A program made the translations under genes and the position numbers. Shown here piece by piece: positions 21,675 through 52,018 of a DNA stretch of 64,000 nt (position 1 is the stretch's first letter; each line of letters begins with the position of its first letter). Below the pieces are notes generated by a model, which worked only from the letters and a program-made list of their open reading frames with translations, had not been told where the DNA came from and did no database searches. Origin of the DNA: a bacterium (GTDB lineage Bacteria > Electryoneota > Electryoneia > Electryoneales > Electryoneaceae); NCBI GenBank assembly GCA_963675295.2, contig CAXXKJ010000002.1, forward strand, positions 1,664,001 to 1,728,000, in the 5' to 3' direction.

Positions 21675-22053
21675 GGGGACGATTGGTTTCGACGGGACGA
21701 TGGGAGGCGGTACTCGCGCGTCGGGGTGGTTCGTGGCCCCGCACCCCTGCGAACAAACCTTCAAATGCCGATGATTACGGCTATGCTATGGCTGCCTGAT
21801 CTAGCTTAGATCACGCATAAAAAGCCACGTCAACAGTTTGCCTTGGCCGTTCGGCGAGCTGCTTGACGACGCGATGAACGGCCTGCTCGGTTGGCGCGTG
21901 CTCGAGCGCCGCCGCTAAGCTTTTCGAGCTGGATGAATCTGGCCTGCCACTTGGCCTTACGGATTCATTGAGACTGCAATAGAGTGGCTACACGCGTAGA
22001 CGGTATCGTGGCCCCGTATCCGGACCCGGGTTCGACTCCCGGCGTCTCCACCA
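21675..22053 (+). ncRNA. ssrA: tmRNA; tag reading frame 21767-21799 encodes ADDYGYAMAA*
   Basis: 5' GGGGACGATTGGTTTCGAC, 3' T-arm CCGGGTTCGACTCCCGG and CGTCTCCACCA pairing with the 5' end with G3-U; tag ending AMAA. Confidence 0.95.
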
Positions 22054-22057
22054 TGTT

Positions 22058-22096
22058 AGCCCTCAGGCCTTGTGATTAAAGGCTTGGGGGCTTTTT
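22058..22096 (+). terminator. Terminator after tmRNA (element-supplied)
   Basis: AGCCCTCAGGCC...GGCTTGGGGGCT stem followed by a T run. Confidence 0.7.
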
Positions 22097-22107
22097 CGCT
22101 CTTGCGG

Positions 22108-22126
22108 ATGTGCCAGATATGTGCCA
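22108..22126 (+). repeat. Putative integrase arm-type site (ATGTGCCA x2), left copy
   Basis: ATGTGCCAGATATGTGCCA recurs exactly at 33204-33222 and 35570-35588. Confidence 0.75.
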
Positions 22127-22169
22127 TATTTGCTGATACCATCTGGTACGATTAAGGAAATTTTGGAAA

Positions 22170-23264: not shown

Positions 23265-23716
23265 ACTGAAAATTCCCAAAATTCAATTTGACTGATTCAA
23301 CTTCTACTTCAGCGACCTTAGAAACCTTGTATTATCCTGTAAATTTAACAAAAACAATGTAATGTATTCAATAACTTGAAATCCGTCCTGAAAACACTCA
23401 TAATAGTACCAAGTGAAATCAGTGAAAAGGCGCATTAGGCTGGACCCAGGCACAAATTCGCCCAACAAACCGCAAGTTTACCGCACGTTGATATCCTGAT
23501 TCCCACTGAAGTTAGACCCCAGACAGCGACCACGACCATAGGGGTGTAAACCCCACTGAATCCGCAGGAAATGCGCGCGGAGCCAGGACAGTGACATTCC
23601 GACAAAACGACATATCGACATTGCTGTATTACCGGAAGATTGCAATGTCATGTTCAGCAGAATTTTGGCGAAATTGGCCACTTCTGATCCGGATTCGTGC
23701 AAGAAGAATTTGGGTC

Positions 23717-23744
23717 TTGACAAATTCGAAAACCGTCCTATACT
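23717..23744 (+). promoter_or_regulatory. Near-consensus sigma70 promoter of the replication operon
   Basis: TTGACA-16 nt-TATACT. Confidence 0.7.
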
Positions 23745-24028
23745 TAGAATAGGGCGCGCAGAACTGTTCGCTACCTCGACCTGACCAGACAGCAGACACC
23801 TTACCAGCGACACCCTACAGATTGGTGGATTGCTAAAACCCAGTATCCGGGATTCCCCATCCCGACGTTGGTTGCCCCAATCCATATAGTATCACCCGGC
23901 CGTGTTTCGGATTTCACTTCATCATCCCGCTTCCAGGGATAGCCCGTCCAGGAATTCAGTGGACGGGTTCCCTAACCCGTGGTGATGACTGAAAATGCAC
24001 GGAACATGATCACAACCAGGAGAAAGAC

Positions 24029-24262
24029 ATGGGACTACATACAGCAACAATCGAAATTCTTGAAGACGATCGCCTTTGTGCGGCGGTCATGAAAGCGGTG
24101 GGAAGGAACTATTCAAACCGCTATATCCAGCGTCAATTCGGCGTTTCAAGACGCCAGCTGGAAAGAATCGTCCAGACGTATTCGAATCCGCAAAATGGAA
24201 TGAAATCAATCGGGAATAAGAATGTGAATGGATGGCTAACCGTAGTAAAATCAAAAACATAA
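24029..24262 (+). CDS. Small putative HTH DNA-binding protein
   Basis: AGGAG RBS; 'YSNRYIQRQFGVSRRQLERIV' HTH-like. Confidence 0.65.
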   Translation: MGLHTATIEILEDDRLCAAVMKAVGRNYSNRYIQRQFGVSRRQLERIVQTYSNPQNGMKSIGNKNVNGWLTVVKSKT

Positions 24263-24280
24263 ATAAATCGGAGCTAAAAT

Positions 24281-26746: not shown

Positions 26747-26750
26747 TCCT

Positions 26751-26858
26751 TGGGACGGATGGGTCGCTTCGGGCGGCACTTTCTATTACCCTTCCTTCGT
26801 GAAGGGTTTTCTTATGAAGAATGTGGAATCTGCTGTCCGATCCGCCCTATGTGTCCCA
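26751..26858. repeat. Imperfect 28 bp inverted repeat with nested hairpin right after the primase gene (candidate origin)
   Basis: 26751-26778 vs 26831-26858 about 20/28 complementary plus G-T pairs; inner ACCCTTC...GAAGGGT hairpin. Confidence 0.55.
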
Positions 26859-27024
26859 CCAGAAAATTTCAAAAAATAAAAAAATCAGCTTCGCGTTCCC
26901 TGGCTCGATCTATATAGAAAGCCCGGTATTTTCCTCACCGGGTATTTTCCACCGGCACCCCGTATCTGAAAGCACTTTCTGCTGGCTGACCAGAGGAACT
27001 TCAAACTTATCACGAGAACAATCT

Positions 27025-27243
27025 ATGAAAAATAAAATCAACCACCATTATCTACCCGGCGCAGACTTTGTCCTACCGAATGAAATAGCCGAAATGACGT
27101 ACTTCAAAAAGATCGACTATACAAGGATATCAGAAGATGCCACCGAAGGCTGGGGGATCAGCCTGGGCTATGAAAATCCAGAAGGTGCCGTAGCAGATAT
27201 CTACGAGTACACGCAAGATCGAATCGATCTGCTGATGGAATAG
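27025..27243 (+). CDS. Small hypothetical protein, possibly a fragment
   Basis: 72 aa ORF with protein-like composition; no recognised motif. Confidence 0.35.
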   Translation: MKNKINHHYLPGADFVLPNEIAEMTYFKKIDYTRISEDATEGWGISLGYENPEGAVADIYEYTQDRIDLLME

Positions 27244-27337
27244 AATCGCACGTTGAACCTTTGATTGGTTTCTTCTGTGTGGGCCCTTCTTTTTGTTCAG
27301 GGAGATTTTCGTTCACGAAAGCTCCCGGGGGGATAGG

Positions 27338-27622
27338 ATGAAGCATTTACTCAAGAAAGTCGCCCTCATTGTTCTGATCTCGGTACTCTGTGTTCACGCA
27401 CAAGTTTTTGGCACGACTCACCATGTACCAGCAGATTACGCCAGCATCCAGGCCGGTCTCGACGCTTCGGCATCCGGCGACACCGTGCTGGTCCAACCCG
27501 GAACCTATGTCGAGAACATTGATTGGCCGTCGGTGAATAGTATCAAGCTCATCGCTGCCGGGGATAGCAGCAATACAATCATTGATGAGCGAAATGTTGG
27601 TCGTATTCAGCACCCGAATTGA
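27338..27622 (+). pseudogene. Truncated paralog of the downstream beta-helix secreted protein
   Basis: 'VPADYASIQAGLDASASGDTVLVQPGTYVENIDWPSVNSIKLIAAGDSSNTIID' aligns with 'VPGDYDTIQEALDVAESGDEVLVQPGTYYENLIWPSINGIELVAAGDTSNTFID', then stops. Confidence 0.8.
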
Positions 27623-27994
27623 GGATAGTTTGACGCGATAATGATCACTGGTGATTCCGTGATCCCCCACCATATTCTATTGACGCGTATTCGCCATAGA
27701 CTTTCACTGCGACTCGTTATTGGCTCTAGGGTGCATGTACGTGACATTCGTCACAACACAAGCGACATTCATTCGTTACTTTCGATTGGGGCATTGGGTT
27801 TTCCGAACACACTTCTTCATCCAGATTGGGGGCGACAATTGGATTCCAACCGTTTCGCTAAACACGAGTGGTTGTTCCTCCAGCATTTTGCTAGTCTTTC
27901 CCTTCTTTTCACAGCTGCCATCGATCCGATTGTTAAAACCAGTTGCGTCCGATACAGTTTTACGTACCTAAGATGTGCACTCCTTGGAGGAACC

Positions 27995-29833
27995 ATGAAG
28001 GGCTTCATTCTGACACTGGCCACATTCGCTCTGGTGATGATGGCTATATCACCCGTTTTCGCGGAGACCATTAACGTACCTGGAGACTACGACACTATCC
28101 AGGAAGCTTTGGATGTAGCGGAATCCGGCGATGAAGTGCTGGTGCAACCCGGAACCTACTATGAGAACCTAATTTGGCCATCAATCAATGGCATCGAACT
28201 GGTTGCTGCTGGTGATACGAGCAACACATTCATCGATGGCAACAGTCTGGATCGTGTACTCACCATCGTTAGTGAAGGTGAGATTGATGCGTCAACAAAC
28301 ATTCAAGGATTTACGATTCAGAATGGTGTTGCAGATGGGGATATGCCCGACTGTTTTGGTGGTGGAATGCTCTGTATTGGCTCCAGCCCAACAATCATGG
28401 AATGTTCCTTCAAGAGCAATTCAGCTCGTAGTGGTGGAGGACTTTTCTTCATGGAATCGTTCTCACATATCAGTGACTGCGATTTTTCATGGAATTCAGC
28501 AGAGGAAGATGGAGCTGGTTTATTTGTCAATGAATCGGGCGTTTTGCTTAGCGATTGCATGATCAACAATAACACAGCAAGCGTTTCTCTGGAAGGAGGA
28601 GGTGGCGGGGCTTTTTCGTTGAATTCAGACATAGAATTCCAGGGCTGTATAATCCAGGACAACGTTTCCATCCCGTATTACGGCGGTGGAATGTATTGCA
28701 TAGAGTCGACAATCCAGATGATCGATTGCGACATCAGCAACAACATTGCTGGCATTGATGGTGGTGGCATTGTGTGTGATGAAAACATTGACTTGTCGCT
28801 ATTCGCCTGTACCATCCATGGAAATGAAGCCCATTATGGTGGCGGGATGTACATTGAGTCAAGCGATTTTACTACCATCGTCGATACCCACATTTTTGAG
28901 AACAGTGCATATGAGGGTGGTGGTATCCTTTGTGTGTCTTCTTCCCTGATTGAAGTCATCAATTGCCATATTTCTGCAAACCAGGTAGTTGGAGAAGGAG
29001 GTGGAGTTTACAGCGAGAATTCAGGTCTGGATGCAAGCAGAAGTGTGATTATTGGAAATACTGCGTACGACGGAGGAGGGTTCGCGCTAAACAATTGTGA
29101 TGCAGTGATTAGTAACTGCACCATTTTCGAAAATGCAGCCAACGTGAATGGTGATGGTGGAGGTATCTATTTGCGTGGCCAGTCGAATCCTGTAATCACA
29201 AATTGTGCCATAACAGATAATTCGGGTGAAGGTCTATACGTAACGGACGGCAGTCCAAATGTTTCATTCAATGATTGCTTCAACAACAGTGGCGGTAACT
29301 ATGGTGGAGCAGGTGTCGATACTGATCTTGGAGTACCCACGGGTGAAAACGCCAACGGCGATCCGTGTGACAATTTCGACAACATCGCTCTCGACCCAAT
29401 GTATTTCGATCCGGACAACGATGACTTTCATCTTCAGGACAGTTCTCCCTGCATAGATGCTGGCGATCCCGCCAGTCCTCTCGACCCGGACAATACCGTA
29501 GCCGATATCGGCGCATTCTATTATGATCCTCTTTCTGTCGCGGACTTGGCAGATACCGAATTACCTGGCAGTTATGTCATCTCCCCGGCCTATCCGAATC
29601 CGTTCAACCCAACGACGACGATCAGTGTAACTCTTCCCCGACCAGCCGATCTGAACGTTTCCGTATTCAACATCAATGGACAACAAGTCGCGTCGTTGGC
29701 ATCCGGGACATATCACGTCGGTTCACATACGTTCACCTTCGATGCATCGAACCTAGCCAGCGGGTTGTACTTCATCCGCGCAGCTTTCCCCGGACATCTC
29801 GACCAAGTTCAGAAGATCATGCTGGTGCGATAA
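27995..29833 (+). CDS. Secreted right-handed parallel beta-helix (GGG-repeat, pectin-lyase-fold) protein with T9SS-type sorting domain; island cargo
   Basis: GGAGG RBS, signal peptide, repeated 'N.A..GGG', 'FHLQDSSPCIDAGDP...DIGA', C-terminal 'YPNPFNPTT...QKIMLVR'. Confidence 0.88.
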   Translation: MKGFILTLATFALVMMAISPVFAETINVPGDYDTIQEALDVAESGDEVLVQPGTYYENLIWPSINGIELVAAGDTSNTFIDGNSLDRVLTIVSEGEIDASTNIQGFTIQNGVADGDMPDCFGGGMLCIGSSPTIMECSFKSNSARSGGGLFFMESFSHISDCDFSWNSAEEDGAGLFVNESGVLLSDCMINNNTASVSLEGGGGGAFSLNSDIEFQGCIIQDNVSIPYYGGGMYCIESTIQMIDCDISNNIAGIDGGGIVCDENIDLSLFACTIHGNEAHYGGGMYIESSDFTTIVDTHIFENSAYEGGGILCVSSSLIEVINCHISANQVVGEGGGVYSENSGLDASRSVIIGNTAYDGGGFALNNCDAVISNCTIFENAANVNGDGGGIYLRGQSNPVITNCAITDNSGEGLYVTDGSPNVSFNDCFNNSGGNYGGAGVDTDLGVPTGENANGDPCDNFDNIALDPMYFDPDNDDFHLQDSSPCIDAGDPASPLDPDNTVADIGAFYYDPLSVADLADTELPGSYVISPAYPNPFNPTTTISVTLPRPADLNVSVFNINGQQVASLASGTYHVGSHTFTFDASNLASGLYFIRAAFPGHLDQVQKIMLVR

Positions 29834-29865
29834 CTGAAACTAACATTTGACTTCGCAAAAGGCTA

Positions 29866-29892
29866 AAAGGGGACGACATTGATCGTCCCCTT
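29866..29892. terminator. Bidirectional terminator-like hairpin
   Basis: AAGGGGACGA-CATTGA-TCGTCCCCTT between convergent genes. Confidence 0.65.
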
Positions 29893-29999
29893 GTTTGTTC
29901 ACCACTTCGACTTGATCCACTTCATCAGGACTGATGCACCTTCAATCGCTGTTTCAGCAGCTTTCCCGATTTCGCGCCAGGGGATACGTGCAATTATCA

Positions 30000-30749
30000 T
30001 CAGTTGTCCTCCCCGGATACACGGTCGCCCGGATCATCGAAATCCTGTTCCTGAATCACGCCAAACGCTTGACGACATTCTTCGCGAAGTTGCATGGCCA
30101 CATCCAGTTCCTGCTGAGTGACAACACGGTCAATGCTGCACTGAACTTCAGCCCAACGATAGCCGTTGCGTTGAACGTCAGACAAACTGAATCGTGTGAT
30201 GACTGCAATGGCTGGCGCTTTCGACCGGGCAAGCCGTTGCAGGTGATTCCGCCAGTGCTTGATGGAAGTCGGGGACAGGTTGAAAACCACAAGCTGCGGT
30301 TTGGTTTCCAGGTACGTCAGGATGAACAAGCGTACCTTGTCCTTGGCCTGTGAAGCCAGGTGAATGGAACCGTCACCGCTGGTGGTCTTTCCGTCGATAG
30401 CGCTGTAGCGTGGGATCTGTTCACCTTCTACCCAAAGCGCACTTACAGTCTGACTGAACACGACAATTCCACTGAAGACGTTGTCCGGTACATCAACCTG
30501 GTCTTCCTGGTTTTCGTCGTAGGATTCGCCGTTGTCGATGAACATGCGATGCCGGCCAGATGGACTGTGGTCAATGCGGACACGAACCAACGACGGTGGG
30601 ATGTTTTCCATCATCGCAGCCACTTCAGTTTCGATATCGATACTGTCCAACTGGTTAATGGCATCCAGGACAACAACGCCCGATTCATCTGAACCGGGCT
30701 TCTGTCGAGCAGGTGTACCGTTACGTGTTTTTGTGTTTTGTTGTGTCAT
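30000..30749 (-). CDS. Phage-type hypothetical protein, possible ssDNA-binding/annealing protein
   Basis: Coupled to nuclease gene (ATGA overlap); 'SGIVVFSQ..ALW...P..SAIDG', 'FNLSPTSIK', 'VITRFSL' pattern recalls proteins in phage replication modules; acidic tail. Confidence 0.5.
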   Translation of the reverse strand: MTQQNTKTRNGTPARQKPGSDESGVVVLDAINQLDSIDIETEVAAMMENIPPSLVRVRIDHSPSGRHRMFIDNGESYDENQEDQVDVPDNVFSGIVVFSQTVSALWVEGEQIPRYSAIDGKTTSGDGSIHLASQAKDKVRLFILTYLETKPQLVVFNLSPTSIKHWRNHLQRLARSKAPAIAVITRFSLSDVQRNGYRWAEVQCSIDRVVTQQELDVAMQLREECRQAFGVIQEQDFDDPGDRVSGEDN

Positions 30750-31651
30750 GCAGCTTCTCCCGTTATGGTCAAGGATTCGATGGATCGTACCTGCCTGGAT
30801 GACAGACCGTCACCTTGTGCATCTGACAGGCAGATGTCAGCGAATGCACACGCAGGACAGTTGATCATGCCTGGGTTACGTGGGAACACACCTCGGTTGA
30901 TGTTGCTGGCTATCGCAGTCAGGTCACGCTTCAGCGTAACCATTTGCTTGCGACTACGACTGGTGCAACGACGCGGATCACCACGTTCATCACCTGCGAC
31001 AAACCCGTTACCGTTTCGCTTGTAGGGGATGTGGTCGCGAAGCTGGTAGTACACGATATCCAGCTTTTCCGGTGGGATTTCCAGCATCCGCATCGTACCG
31101 TCGGGCATCTTGAACACACCATGCCAACAGGCAAGTGCGTACAGACCGAGCTGGTAATCCAAGTCGAGAAATTGCTGGTTCGGTGGGAACTTGGATGACT
31201 TGAAGTCCACTAACTGCCAACGGTTGCCATCCTGGCGGATCTGATCGACCGTCCCGCTGAAGACGTTCCTACCCACCTTCAGCATGAACGTGGCTTCGGA
31301 CAGGATGACGTCGGCATCATGGTTGTAGTCTTTATCCCTGTAGTTTCCCAACATCTGAACAGCCTCTTCGACCAGGGCTGTGATCGTTGCATCCCGCTCC
31401 TCCTTATAGAAGACAGGTGTGTCGGATTCATCCCCACGGAATTCCTCGTGGTCGAATTGTTCCCGGTAACGGGCGGCGATGTCCAGATCCCAGTTGACCA
31501 GGTGCATCTCTTCGATAAGCTGATGAAGAACACGGCCATGCAGTGCAGCTAGTGATCGGAATGCCGAAGGAATCTGATCGATGTATCGGTACTTGAAGCT
31601 GGCAGGACACCACAGGTAGGACTTGATGAGGGACTGACGTAGAACGTCGAT
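30746..31651 (-). CDS. PD-(D/E)XK nuclease, Cas4/AddB-like with four-Cys Fe-S staple; probable ATC start
   Basis: 'LRQSLIKSYLWCPASFKYRY' N-terminus, 'GTVDQI...LVDFKS', 'QLGLYA', C-terminal 'CPACAFADIC'. Confidence 0.85.
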   Translation of the reverse strand: MDVLRQSLIKSYLWCPASFKYRYIDQIPSAFRSLAALHGRVLHQLIEEMHLVNWDLDIAARYREQFDHEEFRGDESDTPVFYKEERDATITALVEEAVQMLGNYRDKDYNHDADVILSEATFMLKVGRNVFSGTVDQIRQDGNRWQLVDFKSSKFPPNQQFLDLDYQLGLYALACWHGVFKMPDGTMRMLEIPPEKLDIVYYQLRDHIPYKRNGNGFVAGDERGDPRRCTSRSRKQMVTLKRDLTAIASNINRGVFPRNPGMINCPACAFADICLSDAQGDGLSSRQVRSIESLTITGEAA

Positions 31652-31671
31652 AAATGACCACCCCCTTTCGA

Positions 31672-32430
31672 TCAGTTTGGCGACAGGAAGTACTGCGACA
31701 CACGACGGTTCAGGTTTTCAGCGCTGAAACGTTCCTGCTTGGTAAGCACGTCAGTTGCTGCGTTGTACACACCCCAAGCCGTATCATCTTCGATACCGTT
31801 GAACACCTTCGCCTGGGTTGTGATCGGCAGGTTGGTTTCACGGAAGAACTTCTGGATGTCCGCACGTCGCATCCGCTTGTGGGTAAGGTCAACCAGCATC
31901 GGCAATACCATGTGGAGACGGTTACCAACACGATCCAACTGGCGAGCCGCAACACGCAGTTCGCGGTCGAAATCCTTACTTCCCCAGTGCTTGAATCGGA
32001 ACCCGCCAAGCATGAACGAAAGCATCATGCCGTTGCTACATACCAGCCGAACGGCGTTGAATTCCAACCCGAAGGTTGTACTACCGTCGTAGGAATTGAC
32101 CGCATCCAGCGTACACGCGACAACATCACCCACCTTGACTTCACCCGTGGTCTGTGTCAGCAGATACCGCTGCCGAAGCTTCTTCCCATTCCACAACGTC
32201 TGATGTTCTTCGACGGGCATTCCCGTTCGGTTCAACAGGTCTTCTGCGACTTGCACAACCTCGCTGTTTTTCACGAGCTTGTACTCGGGGGAAACAACAC
32301 CCACTTCCGTGGCATCAGCATTGGGATTCAACACTACAGCCAAACGGCTGCTGTGATCCCCGTTCGCCCTGCGAAGTGGTTGTAGTTCGACTGGTGCAAA
32401 CGGTGATAGCACCGTCTTCGAATCGGTCAT
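31672..32430 (-). CDS. DUF932 family protein
   Basis: 'GVVSPEYKLVKNSE', 'NSYDGS', 'RLVCSNGM', 'TAWGVYNAAT'; AGGAGG RBS. Confidence 0.88.
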   Translation of the reverse strand: MTDSKTVLSPFAPVELQPLRRANGDHSSRLAVVLNPNADATEVGVVSPEYKLVKNSEVVQVAEDLLNRTGMPVEEHQTLWNGKKLRQRYLLTQTTGEVKVGDVVACTLDAVNSYDGSTTFGLEFNAVRLVCSNGMMLSFMLGGFRFKHWGSKDFDRELRVAARQLDRVGNRLHMVLPMLVDLTHKRMRRADIQKFFRETNLPITTQAKVFNGIEDDTAWGVYNAATDVLTKQERFSAENLNRRVSQYFLSPN

Positions 32431-32484
32431 ACGTCCTCCTGGTTGCTTTGTTCGGGTTCACGTTCTTATGCCGGAAAACTGAAG

Positions 32485-33201
32485 ATGAAGCACTACCACT
32501 ACATCGACGCGCCGGAAGCGCCACACCGAAGTGTGATCGAAATGGATCCGTTGAACATGCCGGGGATGCCGTATGGCGCCATCGAATGGATGTATGATCC
32601 GAAATCCACCGAAGCTGATTTCGTATCAAACCGGCTTGAGGAAATTCAACCGTTCGTGCGGAATGGAATCTTGGTCATCCAGGGTGTGTTTGAAGCGGGG
32701 ACCGTTATCTCGATCGCGCTTCGAGCGGATCACGTACTACAAGACATTTCGTTGTCCGAGATGAACGAGTTAGACGAACTGGTTGTCGAGACGATACAAC
32801 CTGTTTCTAAAGAAATAATCACTGGAATGCTGTATTGGATCGTCGTCGGTCAGACAGGGATCTTCAAATTGAAGGCCAAGGTTGCGCAGGACAAGGATGG
32901 TAAGATTAAGAAACTGCGGACCAACCTGAAAGATATTCCGTTGCGCGAGTATTTGGCTCGGAAGGCTCGGGCAAGAACAGGTGAGTTTACCGAAGCCAAA
33001 CACGACGAATATCCGCCGGTCATGGACACGAAAACCGCCGCTAATTATCTTCGGCGGTCAACGTCCTGGCTATATGGGAAAGCGCAAGATGGTGTGATTC
33101 CTCGGACCCCAGACAAACGGTTCCGTCGCGAAGATCTGGATGCCTATTCACGGCATCAGGAGGAACGTCAACTGAAGAGGGGTCGGCGACGGCGCAGGTA
33201 A
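32485..33201 (+). CDS. Protein with C-terminal MerR-like/excisionase HTH (putative recombination directionality factor); start uncertain
   Basis: 'MDTKTAANYLRRSTSWLY...IP...RFRREDLDAY'; stop abuts the arm-type repeat at the right end. Confidence 0.7.
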   Translation: MKHYHYIDAPEAPHRSVIEMDPLNMPGMPYGAIEWMYDPKSTEADFVSNRLEEIQPFVRNGILVIQGVFEAGTVISIALRADHVLQDISLSEMNELDELVVETIQPVSKEIITGMLYWIVVGQTGIFKLKAKVAQDKDGKIKKLRTNLKDIPLREYLARKARARTGEFTEAKHDEYPPVMDTKTAANYLRRSTSWLYGKAQDGVIPRTPDKRFRREDLDAYSRHQEERQLKRGRRRRR

Positions 33202-33202
33202 A

Positions 33203-33378
33203 TATGTGCCAGATATGTGCCAAGGGATCTGACACGGGCTGGTAAAATCTGGTAAAATCTGGAATTCTCAGTAGAAATCAGATTTGTGTATCAAGCGATA
33301 TAGAAAGAAAATACGGCATTTAGATGCGGTTGCGGGAATCCCATAAATCCGAATCCCGGCGTCTCCACGTTTAACGCC
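33203..33378 (+). repeat. Right-end block 1 (arm repeat + attR core)
   Basis: TATGTGCCAGATATGTGCCAAGG at 33203; GAATCCCGGCGTCTCCACGTTTAACGCC at 33351-33378. Confidence 0.88.
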
Positions 33379-33659
33379 CTAATGCTTGTTAATACAAGTG
33401 TTAGGGCCTTTTTCGTTTCTATGGTATCGATTCCAGTCAACCTACTCTCGTCACGTGGACCAATATCAGAATCAATGGGGAGCCGACAATTCAGGAAATA
33501 ATTGAGAGATCCGGGAACAGGAGCCAAATCAGACCGATAAGTGGGAACTGGCTAGTTGGGGGGGGGGTAGTTAGGATAAACAAACTTTTCGGGCACCCCT
33601 GGCCGGACTAATGGCGGCCGGATCCGACCACGCAAACTCCTTACAAGGAGAGTAGTACC

Positions 33660-35495
33660 ATGATTACAATTCGACCCTTTGTGACCGCCGCTGTCGTTAT
33701 GACGGCCATGACCGCGCCGAATCTTGCAAGCGCCACCGTCCCGCCACTCACGTGGCAGAACACCTATGGAACGGGTCAGGAACACTCGTTCTATGATTTG
33801 GTTTCAGCCGATACGGACGGTGTGTATGCTGTCGGAAGCCGGTTCAATTCTGGCACAGGTGAGGATGAGGCCTGGCTGGCTCGTGTTGACGCAGACGGCA
33901 ACCTCCTCTGGCAGGAATTCTACGGAGAGCCCAATGATGAGATCGAAGCTTTTGCGGCCGCCCGGGCAGGCGATGACATCGTTCTCGCCGGACGCATCGA
34001 TGGTGACGTTTGGGTAGCTCGTCTCGACAATGCAGGCAACCTCCTCTGGCAGGAGGAATACGGCACCGGAGGTATTGATGTCGCATTTGACGTCGCAGTT
34101 ACTGGCTCAGGTGCTAGCGAGCGACTTTGGCTGGCCGGACGCTGGAACGGAAGCGGTTTGCTCGGTGGTGACGGGATGGTCCTGGAGCTGAACGCGAACG
34201 GCATCCTGCTCAACGCTTATCCATACTCAGGATCCGTTCAAATCAACAGTATCACACCAACCACTGGTGGCGTGCTGCTGGCCGGTGAGGCTGCTCAGGG
34301 AAGCAACCGCCAAGCTTGGACGGCATTGATGGATCCAACCGATGGTAGCCTGGACTGGACCCACACCGATGGTGGTGCTGGTCGTGATGTGGCTATGATG
34401 GCCATTGAGGGGCTGGACGGCGATGTGGTAGTTGTTGGTGAACGTCGCTTCTCAGGTGATCCTCGGGTGTGGCTGTACAAACTGGACGCTTTGAACGGCA
34501 GCCTGATCTGGTCGCGTGACTACGGTACGGCAGAAGGTGACGAATACGGTCGTGCTGTGACTGTTTGGGAAGATGGATATATGGTGCTGGCAGAGGCTGA
34601 TAACTTCCAGACACAAGGTGAGGACGTGTGGCTGGTGGGCACCAACAGCATGGGCAACCAGCTCTGGACCGAAGTCTATGCCAGTTCTCAGCAGCAGAGT
34701 CCTGAAGCCTGGCTTCTCAACGGCGATGGACTTTTCGTTGCCGGTGAACAGGAAGGTGGTGGTCCTGAGCGCGGTTTGCTAATGAAGTTCGCAGCAGACC
34801 AGAACATCAGTGAGCTCTCTGTCGAAGTCATTCCGACGTCGCTGACGGATCTGCCGGCGGCAGGTGGGATGCTTGAATTTACTGTTACCCTTGAGAACAC
34901 GACGCCGAATGCATTCCAGGGTCAGGCATGGTCCATGGTCACGTTGCCCAACGGCAATGAATTCGGCCCGCTGGTCGTCGCGCAACTGACGTTGCCGAAC
35001 GGTATTGTGGTGGCTTCCGGGTTGACGCAAAATGTTCCGGGATTTGCCCCTGATGGCAGCTATACCTTCATGGTGAACCTGGGTGTGTTCAACAGCGGAA
35101 CCGTGCTCGCCACAGACAGCTTCGGATTCACCAAGAGTGGGGTGACCACAGGCGTAAATGATTGGGATGTGAGAGGTTGGGATTCGTTTGACTCTGCAGC
35201 TGGTATCGGTTCGGCTGCTGCGCAGCCGGCAGAGTTCAGTCTGGGTTCAGCGTACCCGAACCCGTTCAACCCGACCACCAGTCTGAACGTCGCTCTACCG
35301 GTTGCATCCGATTTGAGAGTCGTGGTATATAACAGTGTCGGACAGCAGGTTGCTGAACTTGCCAGCGGCATGTACAGCGCTGGTACCCACAACCTGTCGT
35401 TTGACGGCAGCAACCTGGCTAGTGGTCTCTACTTCGTGCGGGCTGTCGTGCCGGGTCAGTTGAACGCCATGCAAAAGGTGATGCTGGTGAAGTAG
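33660..35495 (+). CDS. Secreted beta-propeller-like repeat protein with Ig-like domain and T9SS-type sorting domain
   Basis: AAGGAG RBS, signal peptide, repeats 'WLARVDADGNLLWQEFYG', C-terminal 'YPNPFNPTT...QKVMLVK'. Confidence 0.88.
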   Translation: MITIRPFVTAAVVMTAMTAPNLASATVPPLTWQNTYGTGQEHSFYDLVSADTDGVYAVGSRFNSGTGEDEAWLARVDADGNLLWQEFYGEPNDEIEAFAAARAGDDIVLAGRIDGDVWVARLDNAGNLLWQEEYGTGGIDVAFDVAVTGSGASERLWLAGRWNGSGLLGGDGMVLELNANGILLNAYPYSGSVQINSITPTTGGVLLAGEAAQGSNRQAWTALMDPTDGSLDWTHTDGGAGRDVAMMAIEGLDGDVVVVGERRFSGDPRVWLYKLDALNGSLIWSRDYGTAEGDEYGRAVTVWEDGYMVLAEADNFQTQGEDVWLVGTNSMGNQLWTEVYASSQQQSPEAWLLNGDGLFVAGEQEGGGPERGLLMKFAADQNISELSVEVIPTSLTDLPAAGGMLEFTVTLENTTPNAFQGQAWSMVTLPNGNEFGPLVVAQLTLPNGIVVASGLTQNVPGFAPDGSYTFMVNLGVFNSGTVLATDSFGFTKSGVTTGVNDWDVRGWDSFDSAAGIGSAAAQPAEFSLGSAYPNPFNPTTSLNVALPVASDLRVVVYNSVGQQVAELASGMYSAGTHNLSFDGSNLASGLYFVRAVVPGQLNAMQKVMLVK

Positions 35496-45482: not shown

Positions 45483-46700
45483 ATGGACACCACCTTTTTT
45501 GCGCCGGCAGAGGTCTACGGCGACGCCGAACTGCGCCATCAGCGTGAGTTAATCCGTTCGGTGCCGATGCTGGAAATCTTACTCAACTCCGTTCATGTCA
45601 GCGTTCTGGTGCTCAACAATCTCCGTCAGATCGTGTACTACAACAAGGTTTTCTACGATCTCGTGCACGCTCTTGGCACAGACGAAGTGTATGGCAGACG
45701 GCCTGGCGACGTTTTTCGTTGTATCCACGCGAAGGAGCTGCCGAGCGGTTGCGGCACGACCGAATTCTGCCGCACCTGCGGCGCGGTAAAGGCCATCCTC
45801 GATTCGCAGAAGGGGGCTAGCCGCCAGGAAGAATGCCGTATCATGACGCAGAAAGACGTCGAGGTCAACGCGTTGGACGTGCGCGTCTGGTCAACGCCGT
45901 TTGAATACCAGGACGTTCCATTTACCATCCTCTCGCTGGTCGATATCAGCAACGAGAAACGCCGGACCGCGCTGGAACACATCTTCTTCCACGACATCAT
46001 GAACGCTGCAACGAGTGTTCTCGGTTACGCCTCGATGATGCGGTTCGATGAAGAAGCGAACCCGGAGAATCTCGGTGTGCTCGAGGAGAGTGTGTCGCTG
46101 CTCATCGACGACATCGCGGCGCAACGGGATCTCAAGTACGCCGAACAGGGCGAGTTGCAGGTCGATGTAAAGCAGCACAATAGCGGTACGATTCTGGATA
46201 GTCTCTTCACCCGTTTCCGGCATCAGTTCAACGCTGAGGGACGCGAGCTGCAGCTGGACAGCAAGATTGACCGAGTCGAATTTGAGACTGATTTTAGTTT
46301 GCTGAACCGTGTGCTCGGCAACATGGTGAAAAATGCGTTCGAAGCAACGGCGAAGGGGCAGGCTGTGCGTGTGGGCTGCCGTAAATACCGGAACCACCTG
46401 GAGTTCTGGGTGAACAATCCAACAGCGATACCTCGCAACCATCAGCTGCAAGTGTTCAATCGATCCTTCTCAACCAAGGGGAACGGGCGCGGGTTGGGCA
46501 CGTACAGCATGCGTCTGCTGACGGAAAACTACCTCAACGGCCGCCTCAGTTTCGTCACCTCGAAAGAACAGGGCACGACCTTTTCCGCGTACCTGCCGAT
46601 CCGCTTCGCCGACCACAGCAACGGATGGCGGGACGGGATTCCGACGTATCCGATAGGCGACCGTAGCGTGGCGGGACACGAAATACCCCGCAGCGGATAG
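45483..46700 (+). CDS. Sensor histidine kinase with Cys-rich PAS-like input domain
   Basis: 'CIHA...CGTTEFCRTC', H-box 'FFHDIMN', 'NMVKNAFEA', 'FSTKGNGRGLG'. Confidence 0.9.
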   Translation: MDTTFFAPAEVYGDAELRHQRELIRSVPMLEILLNSVHVSVLVLNNLRQIVYYNKVFYDLVHALGTDEVYGRRPGDVFRCIHAKELPSGCGTTEFCRTCGAVKAILDSQKGASRQEECRIMTQKDVEVNALDVRVWSTPFEYQDVPFTILSLVDISNEKRRTALEHIFFHDIMNAATSVLGYASMMRFDEEANPENLGVLEESVSLLIDDIAAQRDLKYAEQGELQVDVKQHNSGTILDSLFTRFRHQFNAEGRELQLDSKIDRVEFETDFSLLNRVLGNMVKNAFEATAKGQAVRVGCRKYRNHLEFWVNNPTAIPRNHQLQVFNRSFSTKGNGRGLGTYSMRLLTENYLNGRLSFVTSKEQGTTFSAYLPIRFADHSNGWRDGIPTYPIGDRSVAGHEIPRSG

Positions 46701-46736
46701 CCACGGGGTGAATTGTTGTTGTTGCGCTTTATGCGG

Positions 46737-47051
46737 TCAGTCGATATAAAACCTTTTACGGTCCAAGCCAAGCGCGTCCAGAATTTCTTCCGCGGTACAG
46801 TCGCCACAATCTGACCACACGCGGTATTTCTTCTGTTCTTCTTCCCAGATGAAATACAAGACTGTCGAGCCCGCACACTGCCCGGGTGTATAGCAGACCG
46901 GGCAACGGTTCATGCCGATGCGGTAGTCCTTTTCGTACGACCAGAATGTGTAGCCGCTTTCGATCAGCTTGCCGACGACATACTTGCAATCCTTAACGAC
47001 GTCAGCGGGTCTTCTTTCGGGCTTCTTCTTTGCTAATCTGTCGAACATCAC
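46737..47051 (-). CDS. Small Cys-rich protein resembling a primase zinc-binding domain
   Basis: 'RCPVC...YRVWSDCGDCTAEEILDALGL'; GGAGG RBS; overlaps upstream stop. Confidence 0.7.
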   Translation of the reverse strand: MMFDRLAKKKPERRPADVVKDCKYVVGKLIESGYTFWSYEKDYRIGMNRCPVCYTPGQCAGSTVLYFIWEEEQKKYRVWSDCGDCTAEEILDALGLDRKRFYID

Positions 47052-47542
47052 CGCCTCCCGGAGCTGGGATCACGCCGGTTCAGCAGTGCTTGGCGGTCTT
47101 TCTCCTTCTGGCGCTGCTGCGCACTACGCTCCTTATCGTAGTTCCGATCCAGCATCATCAGGTAAAGATCAGCCATCTTGAAGTCTTCATCCGTCATTTT
47201 GCTGCGTTCCTGCCAGTATGCCTGCTGGTCGAATTCCGCATGCAACAGGTTTTCGTTGTAGCCCAGGCACTCGCAGAAGTCGGATTCGGTCAGACCGCAG
47301 GGCACGCGCCCGTAGCGTTGCAGCTTGATCTTGCGCTTTTTCCAATCGTACGTAAGCCCCCAGGAGCAGTCGCGGCGATGGCGGCAGTAGTTGTTGAGGC
47401 AGAACGGGCACGACAAGGCGATGCCGCCCGCTTCGAAGTTGTGCCACCAGAGTCCGGCGTCGTTCGCCGCCTGAAGCAAGTCATTGGCGACGTTCTGGAC
47501 GACCTCGACGTCTGGCAGTTCTTTGATGAACAGCTTTTTCAT
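47048..47542 (-). CDS. Cys-rich protein resembling a primase zinc-binding domain, with helical C-terminal extension
   Basis: AAGGA RBS before ATG 47542; 'LSCPFC...KIKLQRYGRVPCGLTESDFCECLGY'. Confidence 0.7.
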   Translation of the reverse strand: MKKLFIKELPDVEVVQNVANDLLQAANDAGLWWHNFEAGGIALSCPFCLNNYCRHRRDCSWGLTYDWKKRKIKLQRYGRVPCGLTESDFCECLGYNENLLHAEFDQQAYWQERSKMTDEDFKMADLYLMMLDRNYDKERSAQQRQKEKDRQALLNRRDPSSGRR

Positions 47543-47828
47543 GGCGGTTCCTTTTGTTGTTGTTGCGGTGGGATGGTAGAGGAGGGGTGAAGCCTTTGAC
47601 GTGGTTGCCATAGCAGACATTCATGTCAAGGCCCAATTCTTTGAGGATCACTGTTTCGCTACAACCGTTGAAGCACGTGAGGACTAACCTGCTATTGCCG
47701 GTATGCCACTCGCCTTCGAGTTCGTTTCCGCAGTGTGGGCACTTCGCAAAGAAGCCGTCGTACACATAATGCGGATCACAACCCATGATTGATAGCATGA
47801 CACCAATCAGCCGGATAGCATAATTCAC
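47481..47828 (-). CDS. Small Cys-rich protein resembling a primase zinc-binding domain
   Basis: GGGGGG RBS before GTG; 'GFFAKCPHC...LVLTCFNGCSETVILKELGL'. Confidence 0.7.
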   Translation of the reverse strand: MNYAIRLIGVMLSIMGCDPHYVYDGFFAKCPHCGNELEGEWHTGNSRLVLTCFNGCSETVILKELGLDMNVCYGNHVKGFTPPLPSHRNNNKRNRHEKAVHQRTARRRGRPERRQ

Positions 47829-47947
47829 TTTATTCCCCCCATGTCAAGTAGGACAACAACAACAAGTTGTAGCTTACAGTACCTGGTGAGTAAGTACAAT
47901 ACATACAAAGAGTTATGATAAACTCTATGTATATATGTAGTTACACT

Positions 47948-49792
47948 CTAGAAGGGCACCGACTCACCCGAATTGTTGTTGTTGCTCTTCTTGTCCTGCC
48001 TTTCGGGTAGGTCGTATGTGCCCCGCGAGACGCACACGAGAAGTCCTTCGGCAGTCATGCGTTTCAGTACCCGGCTGCAGTAGGCGTACGAAATCCCGGT
48101 CGCAGCCACGATATCGGTCAGGCACATGGCCTTCTTCTCGATCCCCAGCACGTCGATGATCTTGCGCCGGGACCCTTCGACCGACGGCTGGTCTTCGTCG
48201 ATCTGACCGGTGATCTGCCATCCGGTGTGTTCAAGTGGGTCCTCTTCGTCGATCTCACGTTTGAATTCCATCCGGTGCCGGGCTTCGTCGATATCACGAC
48301 CGGTGACAAACAATTCGGCTTCGTCAGCACCGCGCTTGCGGCGCATGACAAGGATGGTATCAGCAGCACCGGAAAGACCGAAGCTGCCACTGATCTCGAC
48401 CAGTGGATCGGCTTCGTCAGTAGCCTTGCGGGTGTGGTGGACAAGGCAGATGCAGACCTTGTGCTTCAGGGCGAGGGTCTGCAATGCGGCAGCGACTTGC
48501 GTGTCGTAGTCGTACAGCGACTGCTGTTTCTCCTGTGGTTCACGCCAGCGTCCAAAGGTGTCGATCACAATCAGCTTCGGGTTGTCGGCCTGCCGCAGCC
48601 AGTAGTCCAGCTGCGAAAGGGACGGTGCCTGCGCAATAGTAAAAAAGAGTCTTTTGAGGCTTTCCCTTTCCAGATACATCCCGCCAAGCTGTTTCATCCT
48701 GTACTGGATACGGCGTTCACTGTCTTCCAGTGACACAATCAGCACCTCGCCAGGGTCGCACTTGCCGAGCCCAAGGGCCCGCTGGCCGGAAGCGACCGCC
48801 ATGCCCATCTCAAGGGCGATCCACGACTTGCCGGACTTCGGTTTGCCCGCGAAGATGCACAATCCCTCGCAGATCAGGCCGGGCACGACCCACACCGGCG
48901 GGTCCATCACCTTTGCCATCAGATCCTGACCGCAGTACGAAGAATTCGATGGTAGCAGCTGTGCTTGCGTCGTTTCCGGTACTTCCTTGGCCCGGGTCGC
49001 GACTGGCGGAAGACTGCGGGATACCTGGGACACGATTTCTTCCAATTCTTCCGGCTTGTGACCCAGTGCGAACCAGTCGGTAACATCCTTCACCCCCTTG
49101 AACGGCGGCAGACAGAGGACAAGAGCAGCAAGAGCAACAAGACTGTCTGCTACCATCTTCTGATGTTTGAGCCCGGGCTCGTCACCATCGCAGAGCACCA
49201 CCATCTTGCGGTCCTTGAAATACGAGGCATGGTTACGACCCCACTTCCCAGCGCCGCCGTGGTTGCAGGTAGCAACAAAACCGTGCTTGCGAAGGGTCTC
49301 GACGTCCTTTTCGCCTTCGACCACGTAGATGTACTGGTCCATCGGAGCACGCAGGCACTCCGGCAGGTTGTAAGGGATCGGCTTGACCTTCTTCAGGTTC
49401 CAGACCCACTGGGATTCGTCGTCCGGGTCGATACGGCGGGCGAGGAACTTCTTCCCGGGCTTCCGCACGATCTGGTACAACAGCACATTGTCTTCGGTGT
49501 AGTAGTCGTACACCGCTTCGTAGTCTTTCGACAGACCGTACCCTAGCATCTCGGGGGTGATGCCGAGGTGCGATTCGATATCGCGGCTGTCGCATCCAGC
49601 GTGGCACTTGAACTTGATCTTGCCGAACGGGGTGACATAGACAGAAAGCGACGGGTTCTTGTCGCCGCGTCCCTTGCCGTGTGTTGGCAAAGGACAACAG
49701 CAGACAAAGCCATCGCCTTTGATGTCTCCGGGGTTCAAGCCTTCCTGTTTGCACAGGGACCAGGCGTTGAACAGGTTGTCTGTCAGGTTCAT
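47948..49792 (-). CDS. Primase-helicase: N-terminal Zn-binding domain, TOPRIM, RepA/AAA_25 helicase, C-terminal winged HTH
   Basis: 'CP...H...DKNPSLSV...CHAGC'; TOPRIM 'VVEGEKDV', 'CDGDEPG', 'KDVTDW'; Walker A 'GKPKSGKS', 'VIDT', 'HHTRK'; C-terminal HTH. Confidence 0.92.
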   Translation of the reverse strand: MNLTDNLFNAWSLCKQEGLNPGDIKGDGFVCCCPLPTHGKGRGDKNPSLSVYVTPFGKIKFKCHAGCDSRDIESHLGITPEMLGYGLSKDYEAVYDYYTEDNVLLYQIVRKPGKKFLARRIDPDDESQWVWNLKKVKPIPYNLPECLRAPMDQYIYVVEGEKDVETLRKHGFVATCNHGGAGKWGRNHASYFKDRKMVVLCDGDEPGLKHQKMVADSLVALAALVLCLPPFKGVKDVTDWFALGHKPEELEEIVSQVSRSLPPVATRAKEVPETTQAQLLPSNSSYCGQDLMAKVMDPPVWVVPGLICEGLCIFAGKPKSGKSWIALEMGMAVASGQRALGLGKCDPGEVLIVSLEDSERRIQYRMKQLGGMYLERESLKRLFFTIAQAPSLSQLDYWLRQADNPKLIVIDTFGRWREPQEKQQSLYDYDTQVAAALQTLALKHKVCICLVHHTRKATDEADPLVEISGSFGLSGAADTILVMRRKRGADEAELFVTGRDIDEARHRMEFKREIDEEDPLEHTGWQITGQIDEDQPSVEGSRRKIIDVLGIEKKAMCLTDIVAATGISYAYCSRVLKRMTAEGLLVCVSRGTYDLPERQDKKSNNNNSGESVPF

Positions 49793-49860
49793 CGGTACTC
49801 CTTTGGTTGGTGGTACTGCGGAGAGTGTGAGGACGCTGGCAGGGAGCCAGCAGGGCGTAC

Positions 49861-49889
49861 AAGATAGCGTGTTGTCTTTACGTTGTCAA
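49861..49889 (-). promoter_or_regulatory. sigma70-type promoter of the primase-helicase operon
   Basis: Minus strand TTGACA-17 nt-TATCTT, 8 bp inside the right inverted repeat. Confidence 0.7.
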
Positions 49890-49990
49890 TACCCAACAGC
49901 GCAACAACAACAATTTGCTGTTGCCGCCACCTCCCTGCGGTCGTATTTTCCCTCACTTCTGATTGGGTCCTGGTTAACGCGGAGTAGAGG

Positions 49991-52018
49991 ATGAAGACGT
50001 GGTCACTTCTTGGCGTCCTGACGCTGTTGTTTGCCACCGTGGCATTCGGACAGGCGGTCGAACGCACGCATGATATTGTCCCGGAAGACTATTTCACGCA
50101 GGTATTTCTCACCGATTGCGCGGTATCCCCGGACGGTGAGCTGACGGCATTTGTCGATTACCGTTGGGACAAGGTGAATGATCGCCGCTCGCGCGACTTG
50201 TGGGTGGTGAACAACGAGACGCTGGCGACTACGCGTCTCACGTTTGACCCGGGCAACGAGTTCAGCCCGCAGTGGTCCCCGGACAGCAAGTGGGTCTATT
50301 TCCTCGGTCACATGAGCCGTGGCGGCGACATGACCAAGGCACCGTACGATGGCAGCTCGCAGGTCTGGCGTGTCAACCCGGACGGCAACGGCCTGATGCC
50401 GGTGACCAGCGTGCCGGGCGGGATTTACGGGTACGAGCTGTCGGCGGACGGCAAAACGTTGTATTACACCCTCGCGAAAGAGATCAGCGTCGGCGAGTGG
50501 CAGGACATGAAGGCCACGTACGCCAATGTCACCTACGCCGAGGGCACGAACGAAGTCTGCGAGCTGTGGAAGCTGAACCTGGTGACGTGGCGTGCGGACA
50601 AGCTGTTCGCGCCCGAGCTGCACATCCATGAGTTTTCCGTCTCGCCGAACGAGCAGAAGGTTGCGATGATCACTACCGAGAGCGGCAAACTGATCGAGCT
50701 CGAGGGGTGGTCCAATGTGACGATCTACGATGCCGAGACCGGCGACTCGTATGACCTGTACGACCAATTGTGGCGTGACGATGCGCCGTCCCCGCACGGG
50801 TGGCTCGGCGAACCAACGTGGAACGATTCCGGCAACAAGCTGGCGTTCACCGTCGACTTTGACGGCTATCCGGCCGAGGTAATTGTCTCCGACTTTTCGG
50901 AACGTGCGGCGAATCTGATGCGCATGCCGCGTCCGGAGATGGTGCACGTCGCCGGGCATATCCACTGGCTGCCGGAGAGTGACGAGGAGATTGCGTTTGT
51001 CGGGCACAACCTCGCCCGTCAGCGGGTCTACAGCGTGGAGCTGGGTACCGGTGACTACAAGACGTTGACCAACGGCGACGTGGTCATCGACAACTTCGGG
51101 TTCACCGGTGACGGGGAAGATCTGGTCGCGATCCAGAGCACGTTGACCTACTACCAGGATCTCGTCTACTACAAGGGCAACAAGTCAACGCGGATCACGA
51201 AGCTGAATCCGCAGGTGGACACATGGAAGCTTCCGCAGATCCAGATCGTCGAGTGGGAAGGTGCGAACGGCGACATGGTCTCCGGCATTCTTGAGCTTCC
51301 GCCGGACTATGAGCCGGGCCAGAAGCTGCCGCTGCATCTCACGTTGCACGGTGGCCCGACCGTTGCCGAACCGTATTGCTTCCAGTTGTGGATTTACGGA
51401 CGCGCGTCCTTCGCCGCCAAGGGCTGGGCGATGCTGTCGCCGAATTATCGTGGCTCGCTGGGGTACGGTGACGAGTTCCTCACCGACCTGATCGGTCACG
51501 AGAACGATTGGGACGTGAAGGACATCATGGCCGGCGTTGACTATCTCATCGCGGAAGGTATTGTCGACGAGGACAAGATGGGTGTCAGCGGCTGGAGTAA
51601 CGGCGGATTCCTGACCAACGCGCTGATCGCGTCGAACCGTTTCAAGGCGGCGAGCACCGGCGCTGGTGTGCTTGACATGACGATGCAGCTGGTGATGGAG
51701 GATACTCCTGGCCACGTGGTCAACTTCATGCAGTCGTTGCCGTGGGAGAATCCGGAAGCGTACATCCACGGATCCCCGATCTTCACGTTCCACGATGGCA
51801 TCAAGACGGCGGTGTTGATCCACGTCGGCGAAAATGATCCGCGAGTTCCGCCCGCGCACAGTGTCGGCCTGCATCGCATGCTGAAGCATTACCTCGGCGT
51901 CAACAGCGAATTGATCATCTACCCGGGTGCCGGTCACAACCTGACCAAGTACACGCACCGTCTCGCGAAAGCGAAGTGGGACCACGCGTGGTTCGACAAA
52001 TACGTGCTCGGGAAGTAA
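49991..52018 (+). CDS. S9 family (prolyl oligopeptidase/acylaminoacyl) peptidase
   Basis: Signal peptide, PD40-like propeller, 'HGGP', 'NYRGS', nucleophile 'GWSNGG', 'DPRV', 'GH'. Confidence 0.93.
   Translation: MKTWSLLGVLTLLFATVAFGQAVERTHDIVPEDYFTQVFLTDCAVSPDGELTAFVDYRWDKVNDRRSRDLWVVNNETLATTRLTFDPGNEFSPQWSPDSKWVYFLGHMSRGGDMTKAPYDGSSQVWRVNPDGNGLMPVTSVPGGIYGYELSADGKTLYYTLAKEISVGEWQDMKATYANVTYAEGTNEVCELWKLNLVTWRADKLFAPELHIHEFSVSPNEQKVAMITTESGKLIELEGWSNVTIYDAETGDSYDLYDQLWRDDAPSPHGWLGEPTWNDSGNKLAFTVDFDGYPAEVIVSDFSERAANLMRMPRPEMVHVAGHIHWLPESDEEIAFVGHNLARQRVYSVELGTGDYKTLTNGDVVIDNFGFTGDGEDLVAIQSTLTYYQDLVYYKGNKSTRITKLNPQVDTWKLPQIQIVEWEGANGDMVSGILELPPDYEPGQKLPLHLTLHGGPTVAEPYCFQLWIYGRASFAAKGWAMLSPNYRGSLGYGDEFLTDLIGHENDWDVKDIMAGVDYLIAEGIVDEDKMGVSGWSNGGFLTNALIASNRFKAASTGAGVLDMTMQLVMEDTPGHVVNFMQSLPWENPEAYIHGSPIFTFHDGIKTAVLIHVGENDPRVPPAHSVGLHRMLKHYLGVNSELIIYPGAGHNLTKYTHRLAKAKWDHAWFDKYVLGK

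Follow-up and report, generated by a model that had tools for sequence, protein, structure and literature searches.

The phage T7 protein gp4 is a Toprim primase that carries a zinc-binding domain (ZBD) at its N-terminus, and in the alpha protein of satellite phage P4 a zinc ribbon, a Toprim primase, a helicase and a C-terminal origin-binding domain are combined in one polypeptide, P4 also having ori and crr repeats. P4 is not known to carry additional zinc-domain genes in an array. The locus described here is a cassette of about 3.2 kb within a 64,000-nt stretch of DNA from a bacterium of the Electryoneaceae (assembly GCA_963675295.2, contig CAXXKJ010000002.1, positions 1,664,001 to 1,728,000); the whole stretch is referred to as the window, and coordinates are positions in it unless another record is named. 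As in DnaG-type and phage Toprim primases, the Rep protein of this cassette has a domain with CHCC ligands in front of a Toprim domain, and rep is followed by three small open reading frames (ORFs), A, B and C. The four ORFs lie co-directionally on the minus strand where a preliminary description of this DNA had placed them, with all of the peptide motifs it quoted. The same description regarded A, B and C as stand-alone, diverged paralogues of the Rep ZBD. Sequence comparisons make this very likely for ORF A, as a strongly diverged copy of a Rep-type domain, and probable for ORF C, whereas for ORF B, which has the same layout without statistical support, ZBD ancestry is doubtful.

The comparison is based on a hidden Markov model (HMM) of 149 Rep-type ZBDs with 55 match columns, run with filters off against the 77,049 six-frame ORFs of at least 35 aa in the genome itself, and on an extended profile of 92 sequences and 96 columns. 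With the main HMM, ORF A is found at rank 5 of 77,049 (17.0 bits, E 0.014), after the four Rep paralogues of the genome, and it keeps this rank with the extended profile (E 0.012). Each ORF was also subjected to 3000 full and 3000 Cys-fixed shuffles, none of which reached the score of ORF A in either set. Alignment of the single ORF sequences with the extended alignment in hhalign gave a probability of 94.4% and a significant P of 8.9e-8 over 72 columns for ORF A, which additionally matches the first 68 positions of the phrog_6088 primase family (E 0.012), a family that Rep matches further along. The values for ORF C are weaker, with rank 29 (E 4.1) in the main search, rank 9 of 77,049 (E 0.83) with the extended profile, a score reached by none of the full and one of the Cys-fixed shuffles, and an hhalign probability of 17% (P 1.4e-3, 78 columns). 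Its alignment with the extended profile is a single collinear stretch of 53 residues running from the CP knuckle to LGLDRKR. Among 30 look-alikes of ORF C in the ESM Atlas, 12 belong to PF01807 primase zinc-ribbon clusters and two to PF08273, with a score of 0.91, a lead only, given that scores of 0.9 are reached by 4-10 per 100 shuffled proteins according to the tool's own note. A pattern defined post hoc (CxxC, 8-45 residues, Cx2-3C, 6-11 residues, LG and a hydrophobic residue) is found only in A and C among the 77,049 ORFs, and in 2 of 17,678 ORFs from 116 related loci, neither of them convincing.

The putative copies differ from their presumed parent in ligand pattern and loop. In a sequence alignment, A and C have CxxC and Cx2-3C at the positions corresponding to C33, H38, C63 and C67 of Rep, the C-x4-H of the family (and of DnaG-type domains) being replaced by CxxC and the His ligand by Cys, which would give C4 instead of CHCC. 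In the alignment proposed for ORF B, the first knuckle is present and an Arg stands where the first Cys of the second knuckle is expected. The scaffold, which consists of an N-terminal helix, a CP knuckle, a beta hairpin and a helix with LG at its end, appears to be kept in all three ORFs. Each of them is a separate gene not fused to a Toprim domain, and none has the HGKGRGDxNPS loop, where conservation in the family is highest. Loss of this loop argues against A, B and C being drop-in replacements of the Rep ZBD and is compatible with their being mimics. They therefore appear to be copies of the scaffold minus the conserved loop, for which full substitution for the Rep ZBD is unlikely.

The parent domain itself is accepted as a primase-type CHCC ZBD on the grounds of its position, its ligand pattern and the matches of its predicted fold to viral proteins. 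In Pfam, the 614-aa Rep matches AAA_25 with its helicase core (E 9.3e-27) and, weakly, Toprim_2; residues 541-603 give weak winged-helix matches, all under the curated cut-offs. Against PHROGs, Rep matches the primase/helicase family phrog_239 (1.1e-36) and phrog_6088, annotated as 'DNA primase' (1.6e-22). Residues C33, P34, H38, G39, G41, G43, D44, S48, C63 and C67 are invariant in Rep and 16 full-length relatives, as are the Toprim acidic residues E159, D204 and D236, and the N-terminus is thus read as a CHCC zinc domain before an apparently intact Toprim primase. Within the loop, H38, G43, D44 and S48 are invariant in both a 17-member and a 41-member alignment, and G39, G41 and P47 are invariant or present in at least 90%. 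For Rep residues 1-100, a collection of 1.84 billion representatives yields 571 relatives at E <= 1e-3. An AlphaFold2 model of the domain, made with 40 short relatives as alignment, has a pLDDT of 83.9 and an element order of helix, strand, knuckle, beta hairpin and helix. In Foldseek its best match in the PDB is the DnaG ZBD 1d0q, at a non-significant level (E 0.18, TM 0.37), and the sequence profile of the domain reaches 1d0q only at E 1.3. Against the viral structures of BFVD there are four matches at E <= 1e-3, the named ones being Toprim primases and the best one the N-terminus of a 695-aa Toprim primase (E 4.6e-6, TM 0.65). The Pfam families PF01807 (DnaG CHC2 zinc finger) and PF08273 (P4-type primase zinc ribbon) have no match at E <= 1 in Rep, A, B or C.

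Small BFVD proteins that match the model, A0A1B1IRE7 (73 aa) and A0A3T0ILY9 (84 aa, 'DNA primase subunit'), resemble the proposed copies in that a primase-type zinc domain is encoded as a small separate gene. A further candidate for a stand-alone ZBD, the 86-aa phiC31 'ORF 8' (BFVD, E 1.3e-4 with the model), was rejected because gp9a starts there; the current phiC31 record (locus L237, 25107-27524) has no gene 8 annotated, and the BFVD entry is probably the N-terminus of a larger protein. With respect to the rest of the polypeptide, RSF1010 RepA (PDB 1g8y) resembles the helicase core of Rep, matching residues 297-505 (E 1.1e-7), but is a protein of its own that has neither a primase nor a zinc domain. 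Rep shares with P4 alpha the architecture in one polypeptide, its C-terminal origin-binding domain being putative, and the presence of short repeats at two or more places around the gene, although its helicase is RepA/AAA_25-like and not of the D5/SF3 type, and its binding to the repeats is only presumed.

Several results weigh against the view that A, B and C are functional derivatives of the Rep ZBD. ORF B scores -0.7 bits in the main HMM search, at chance level and outside the best 40 rows, and its score is reached by 722 of the full and 488 of the Cys-fixed shuffles; its hhalign comparison is not significant (probability 0.7%, P 0.075, 82 columns), it has no usable ESM Atlas match, and its single-sequence AlphaFold2 model is unusable (pLDDT 47), the elements following the order of the Rep ZBD model. 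Pairwise comparisons do not exceed chance level, as BLASTP of Rep residues 1-100 gives E 0.089 over 21 residues with A and nothing with B or C, and Smith-Waterman alignment with 2000 shuffles gives non-significant p values of at least 0.044 in all six pairs. A reciprocal profile made from the two sequences A and C misses Rep, its best hit to the family being a Rep paralogue at rank 18 (E 13). ORF A is absent from a collection of 5.8 billion proteins, where it was not called as a gene, and its 47-codon tail has no coding signal (-0.33) and overlaps B by 62 nt. Homologue searches returned only B and C themselves and, for A, nothing at all; in the absence of homologues in the searched collections, selection on the three ORFs is not measurable. 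Finally, no second ZBD-like ORF was detected at E 0.1 in any of 196 other Rep-type loci, a threshold at which an A-like copy would be detected and a C-like one would not.

Log-odds of codon usage, with 1337 long ORFs of this genome as training set, have in-frame values per codon of +0.37 for B (GC3 0.79), +0.22 for C and +0.13 for the domain part of A, the other five frames being negative. ORFs B (164 aa) and C (103 aa) are both present in the collection of 5.8 billion proteins, each as a cluster of one. ORF A has a GTG start and 115 aa, and is separated from ORF C by 430 bp; since the promoter match before it overlaps this GTG at 47828, its real start is more likely the ATG at 47798 or 47786. 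ORF B starts with MKK and would be 190 aa long from a start at 47620, and ORF C (103-104 aa) has a start which overlaps the stop of B (GTGATG). Two frames are open together at 47543-47624, those of the ORF A tail and of the region upstream of the ORF B start. This stretch holds a CAACAACAACAAAAGG run at which a one-base shift would join the A domain to B, and there is no evidence of such a shift.

Searches for relatives of the small ORFs covered several collections. With phmmer, A, B and C matched only themselves among the 77,049 ORFs of their own genome and had no match among the ORFs around nine other Rep homologues, neighbourhoods in which a scan for the Cys pattern likewise found nothing comparable. 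No match was obtained with tblastn against 50,697 phage records, nothing relevant in a sequence search of the PDB, and no DNA-binding or regulator family in searches that included Pfam and PHROG. Across 79 genomes of the phylum, ORF B gave only noise, the best match (E 4.1e-4) having internal stops.

Rep itself has a restricted distribution in the phylum. Homologues at E <= 1e-20 occur in 7 of the 79 genomes including its own, all within one family, where 6 of 15 other genomes have them; outside the genus, identity to the most similar Rep is 34-42%. Scans for Rep loci with single proteins gave no hits. The genome has three further Rep paralogues (57%, 32% and 34% identity; loci L002-L005, C2:1806435-1808405, C2:2551983-2553923 and C2:3329326-3331707), around which neither CAACAACAACAA repeats nor small zinc-ribbon neighbours were found; upstream of the first, the opposite strand carries an ORF resembling an HNH endonuclease, and the second contains an in-frame TAG. 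In 36 genome, 80 viral and 80 metagenome loci of the Rep type, not all of them independent as some metagenome contigs duplicate viral ones, exactly one ORF each matches the ZBD profile at 1e-3, and this ORF is at least 276 aa long in 114 of the first 116 loci. A count of ZBD genes at Rep homologues, the check suggested in the preliminary description, thus gave a single one in 196 of 196 loci. Among the loci examined, only this genome has the A, B and C set, and the absence of a second ZBD gene from all 196 means that it is not a recurrent system. Literature listings on stand-alone or isolated primase zinc domains yielded no array of ZBD paralogues. What appears to be new here is the presence of two to three strongly diverged orphan ZBD copies behind a primase that keeps its own ZBD, in a tiny insertion bounded by repeats.

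The insertion is defined by comparison with G027, a genome of the same genus, in which the genes for the flanking histidine kinase (89% identity) and S9 peptidase (95% identity) lie side by side with 155 bp between them. About 3.2 kb has therefore been inserted in the present genome, and 46711-49915 is a strain-specific insertion. Alignment to G027 resumes 5 nt outside the right repeat and ends at 46654 on the left, where the junction is resolvable only to 46655-46710. Neither the final 15 histidine-kinase codons nor the 56 nt preceding the left repeat can be aligned to the 92-nt intergenic region of G027, either because the insertion replaced some DNA or because this stretch has diverged. Four sequencing runs of one study contain the stretch, and no RNA run was listed for it. 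Contigs from these runs were identical to the window, one of them, from a second sample, bridging the right junction, and they showed neither an empty site nor a circle junction nor a variant.

Both ends of the insertion are marked by an 18-mer, AGCGCAACAACAACAATT, present as a perfect inverted pair and in three weaker copies inside, so that the window has five matches at no more than three mismatches against 0.04 expected. In a whole-genome scan with a 15-mer, there was one match with one mismatch beyond three copies in the window. An AT-rich stretch of 80 bp lies between two of the internal copies (47850 and 47971), which are inverted relative to each other. The copies at 49898 and 47850 lie 8 and 2 nt upstream of TTGACA in the two best promoter-like matches of the coding strand, as scored against the sigma-70 consensus, which may not fit this phylum, a point against the favoured explanation. 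With five copies of a motif and an AT-rich spacer, the arrangement could be that of an iteron-controlled replicon, the winged-helix matches of Rep being below cut-offs. By analogy with iteron plasmids, and with P4 alpha and its ori and crr, we infer that the repeats are Rep-binding sites, that the AT-rich stretch is the origin and that both promoters are controlled by Rep. In a circular form of the element with joined ends, the two outer repeats would together make up a perfect palindrome of 36 bp with AATT at its centre. An Rfam scan of 46000-50500 found no family. No integrase, transposase or target-site duplication was seen at the insertion, which leaves its mode of entry unexplained and likewise counts against the favoured explanation. 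The cassette is most likely a remnant or a minimal form of a plasmid- or satellite-like element, and as an unusually small and cleanly bounded insertion of Rep and repeats without a recombinase it raises the question of how it entered.

The favoured explanation brings these features together. Rep would probably bind the five CAACAACAACAA repeats that bracket the element, flank the putative origin just downstream of rep and lie directly upstream of both promoter-like sites, and such binding could control its own gene and the A-B-C operon. A, B and C would be zinc-domain mimics acting in trans on a Rep-type primase-helicase by occupying its docking surface or the template, which would tune or block priming and in this way allow control of copy number or interference with a competing element. 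Published work on DnaG describes residues of the beta4 strand of the ZBD as setting the recognised trinucleotide and the ZBD as able to work in trans together with a catalytic domain that belongs to a different primase molecule (PMC2978363), so that the two properties which the preliminary description took as established, template specificity and action in trans, are in print at least for this enzyme. Retention of the scaffold together with loss of the conserved loop makes competitors or modulators more likely than substitutes. Mimicry in trans by A, B and C, by which Rep-type priming would be tuned or blocked, is proposed tentatively and, with its structural claims included, at somewhat less than even probability.

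The principal alternative is that A, B and C are working zinc-ribbon accessory proteins unrelated to priming (possibly transcription regulators, partition or anti-defence factors), for which ZBD ancestry would be merely historical. Mobile elements commonly carry small orphan genes for zinc ribbons, the absence of the invariant loop and the extra helical C-terminal half of B fit such a role, and the coding signal and operon layout suggest that the genes are expressed; but none of the three has a match to a DNA-binding or regulator family, and their place directly behind rep together with a shared ZBD ancestry fits a role in replication more simply, which leaves this explanation somewhat unlikely. 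It is less likely again that they are decaying, functionless relics of partial duplications of the rep 5' end or of older rep genes. The singleton status of the set without homologues, the tail of A with its missing coding signal and its overlap with B, the second-knuckle Cys missing from B in the proposed alignment, the loss of the loop in all three, and a run of 11 nt that B and rep have in common where KIK is aligned speak for relics. Yet the frames are intact, B and C show host-like codon usage in frame and negative values in the remaining five frames, A and C retain all four positions of the zinc ligands, and the stop of B overlaps the start of C. Comparison of the rep 5' region with A, B and C at the DNA level found only the repeat itself (p 0.076 for B and 0.35 for C), and any duplication must thus be old, while the frames have stayed open.

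The resemblance to the Rep ZBD could also be convergent or due to chance, A, B and C being unrelated zinc ribbons with a helix that ends in LG. Pairwise statistics at chance level, the failure of the reciprocal A and C profile, the absence of Pfam primase zinc-finger families from the three ORFs and the frequency of high Atlas scores among shuffled proteins are in line with this. For A, such an explanation has to account for the hhalign P over 72 columns, the rank directly behind the Rep paralogues and the failure of any Cys-fixed shuffle to reach the score, and for C, for three independent weak signals (shuffles, hhalign and Atlas) pointing to the same domain; moreover, the pattern shared by A and C occurs nowhere else in the genome, yet the two genes are close neighbours beside a primase that bears a ZBD. 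Chance or convergence is rated as very unlikely.

The proposal of trans-acting mimics can be extended to a self-contained mobile replicon bounded by inverted Rep-binding sites, in which a private set of fast-evolving mimics descended from its own primase would jam or redirect the primase-helicases of competitors, possible targets being a D5-type primase-helicase in an island 22 kb away or incoming phages. This extension is improbable on present data; if true, the cassette would be a replication-interference module of an undescribed kind. The notion of specificity modules, decoys or a defence system in the preliminary description found no direct support, given the lost loop, the lack of recurrence and a PADLOC 2.0 search with no match for A or C and only DruE3 for B (E 0.0027, 13.4 bits). 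In the same search, Rep matched a DnaG-like part of a DRT model (E 3.2e-4), which reflects its Toprim domain, and there is no evidence for a defence role. Primase ZBDs choose where a primer starts and can act across subunits, and copies without the loop that bound the same partners would modulate or inhibit priming. If true, this would offer a simple handle on the communication between zinc domain and catalytic domain, and possibly a means by which mobile elements set their copy number or hinder rivals; as a singleton without relatives, the set is of unproven general importance. The features of the cassette are listed in Table 1.

Table 1. Features of the Rep cassette, from right to left in the window
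Feature	Position	Strand	Remark
Right 18-nt inverted-repeat copy, perfect, core CAACAACAACAA	49898..49915	+	Outer boundary of the insertion; homology to the G027 empty site resumes at 49921
Sigma-70-like promoter match before rep	49861..49889	-	10/12 consensus positions; -35 TTGACA 8 nt from the repeat; consensus match only
rep: CHCC ZBD (~aa 1-85, 49538-49792), Toprim, RepA-like AAA_25 helicase, C-terminal winged-helix-like region	47948..49792	-	
Repeat copy, 1 mismatch, within the 3' end of rep	47971..47988	-	18-mer scan
AT-rich spacer between inverted repeat copies, putative origin	47868..47947	.	GC 31% vs 55% for the whole element; origin role inferred
Repeat copy with 3 mismatches, situated 2 nt upstream of the -35 hexamer in the promoter-like match before ORF A	47850..47867	+	
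Sigma-70-like promoter match before ORF A	47820..47847	-	Overlaps the GTG at 47828
ORF A: C4 zinc-ribbon domain (~47625-47798), then 47-codon tail overlapping the ORF B start	47481..47828	-	
Repeat copy, 3 mismatches, A/B junction	47552..47569	-	18-mer scan
ORF B: Cys-rich N-terminal half (7 Cys), helical C-terminal half; orphan	47048..47542	-	
ORF C: probable C4-type ZBD derivative	46737..47051	-	
Left 18-nt inverted-repeat copy, perfect, 8 nt past the ORF C stop	46711..46728	-	
GC-rich terminator-like hairpin just outside the left repeat	46685..46709	-	Overlaps the end of the convergent histidine-kinase gene

Elsewhere in the window, a tmRNA gene at 21675-22053 is followed by a tyrosine integrase (22170-23264) and by a D5_N/DUF5906 primase-helicase (24281-26746), and the GC content of 21675-34000 is 0.48-0.53 compared with about 0.58-0.62. 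This region is probably an island integrated at ssrA, with a second, unrelated primase-helicase. In or beside it are two large ORFs (27641-29833 and 33660-35495) which end in Por_Secre_tail, a sorting domain of type IX secretion, and one of the two has a right-handed beta-helix region.

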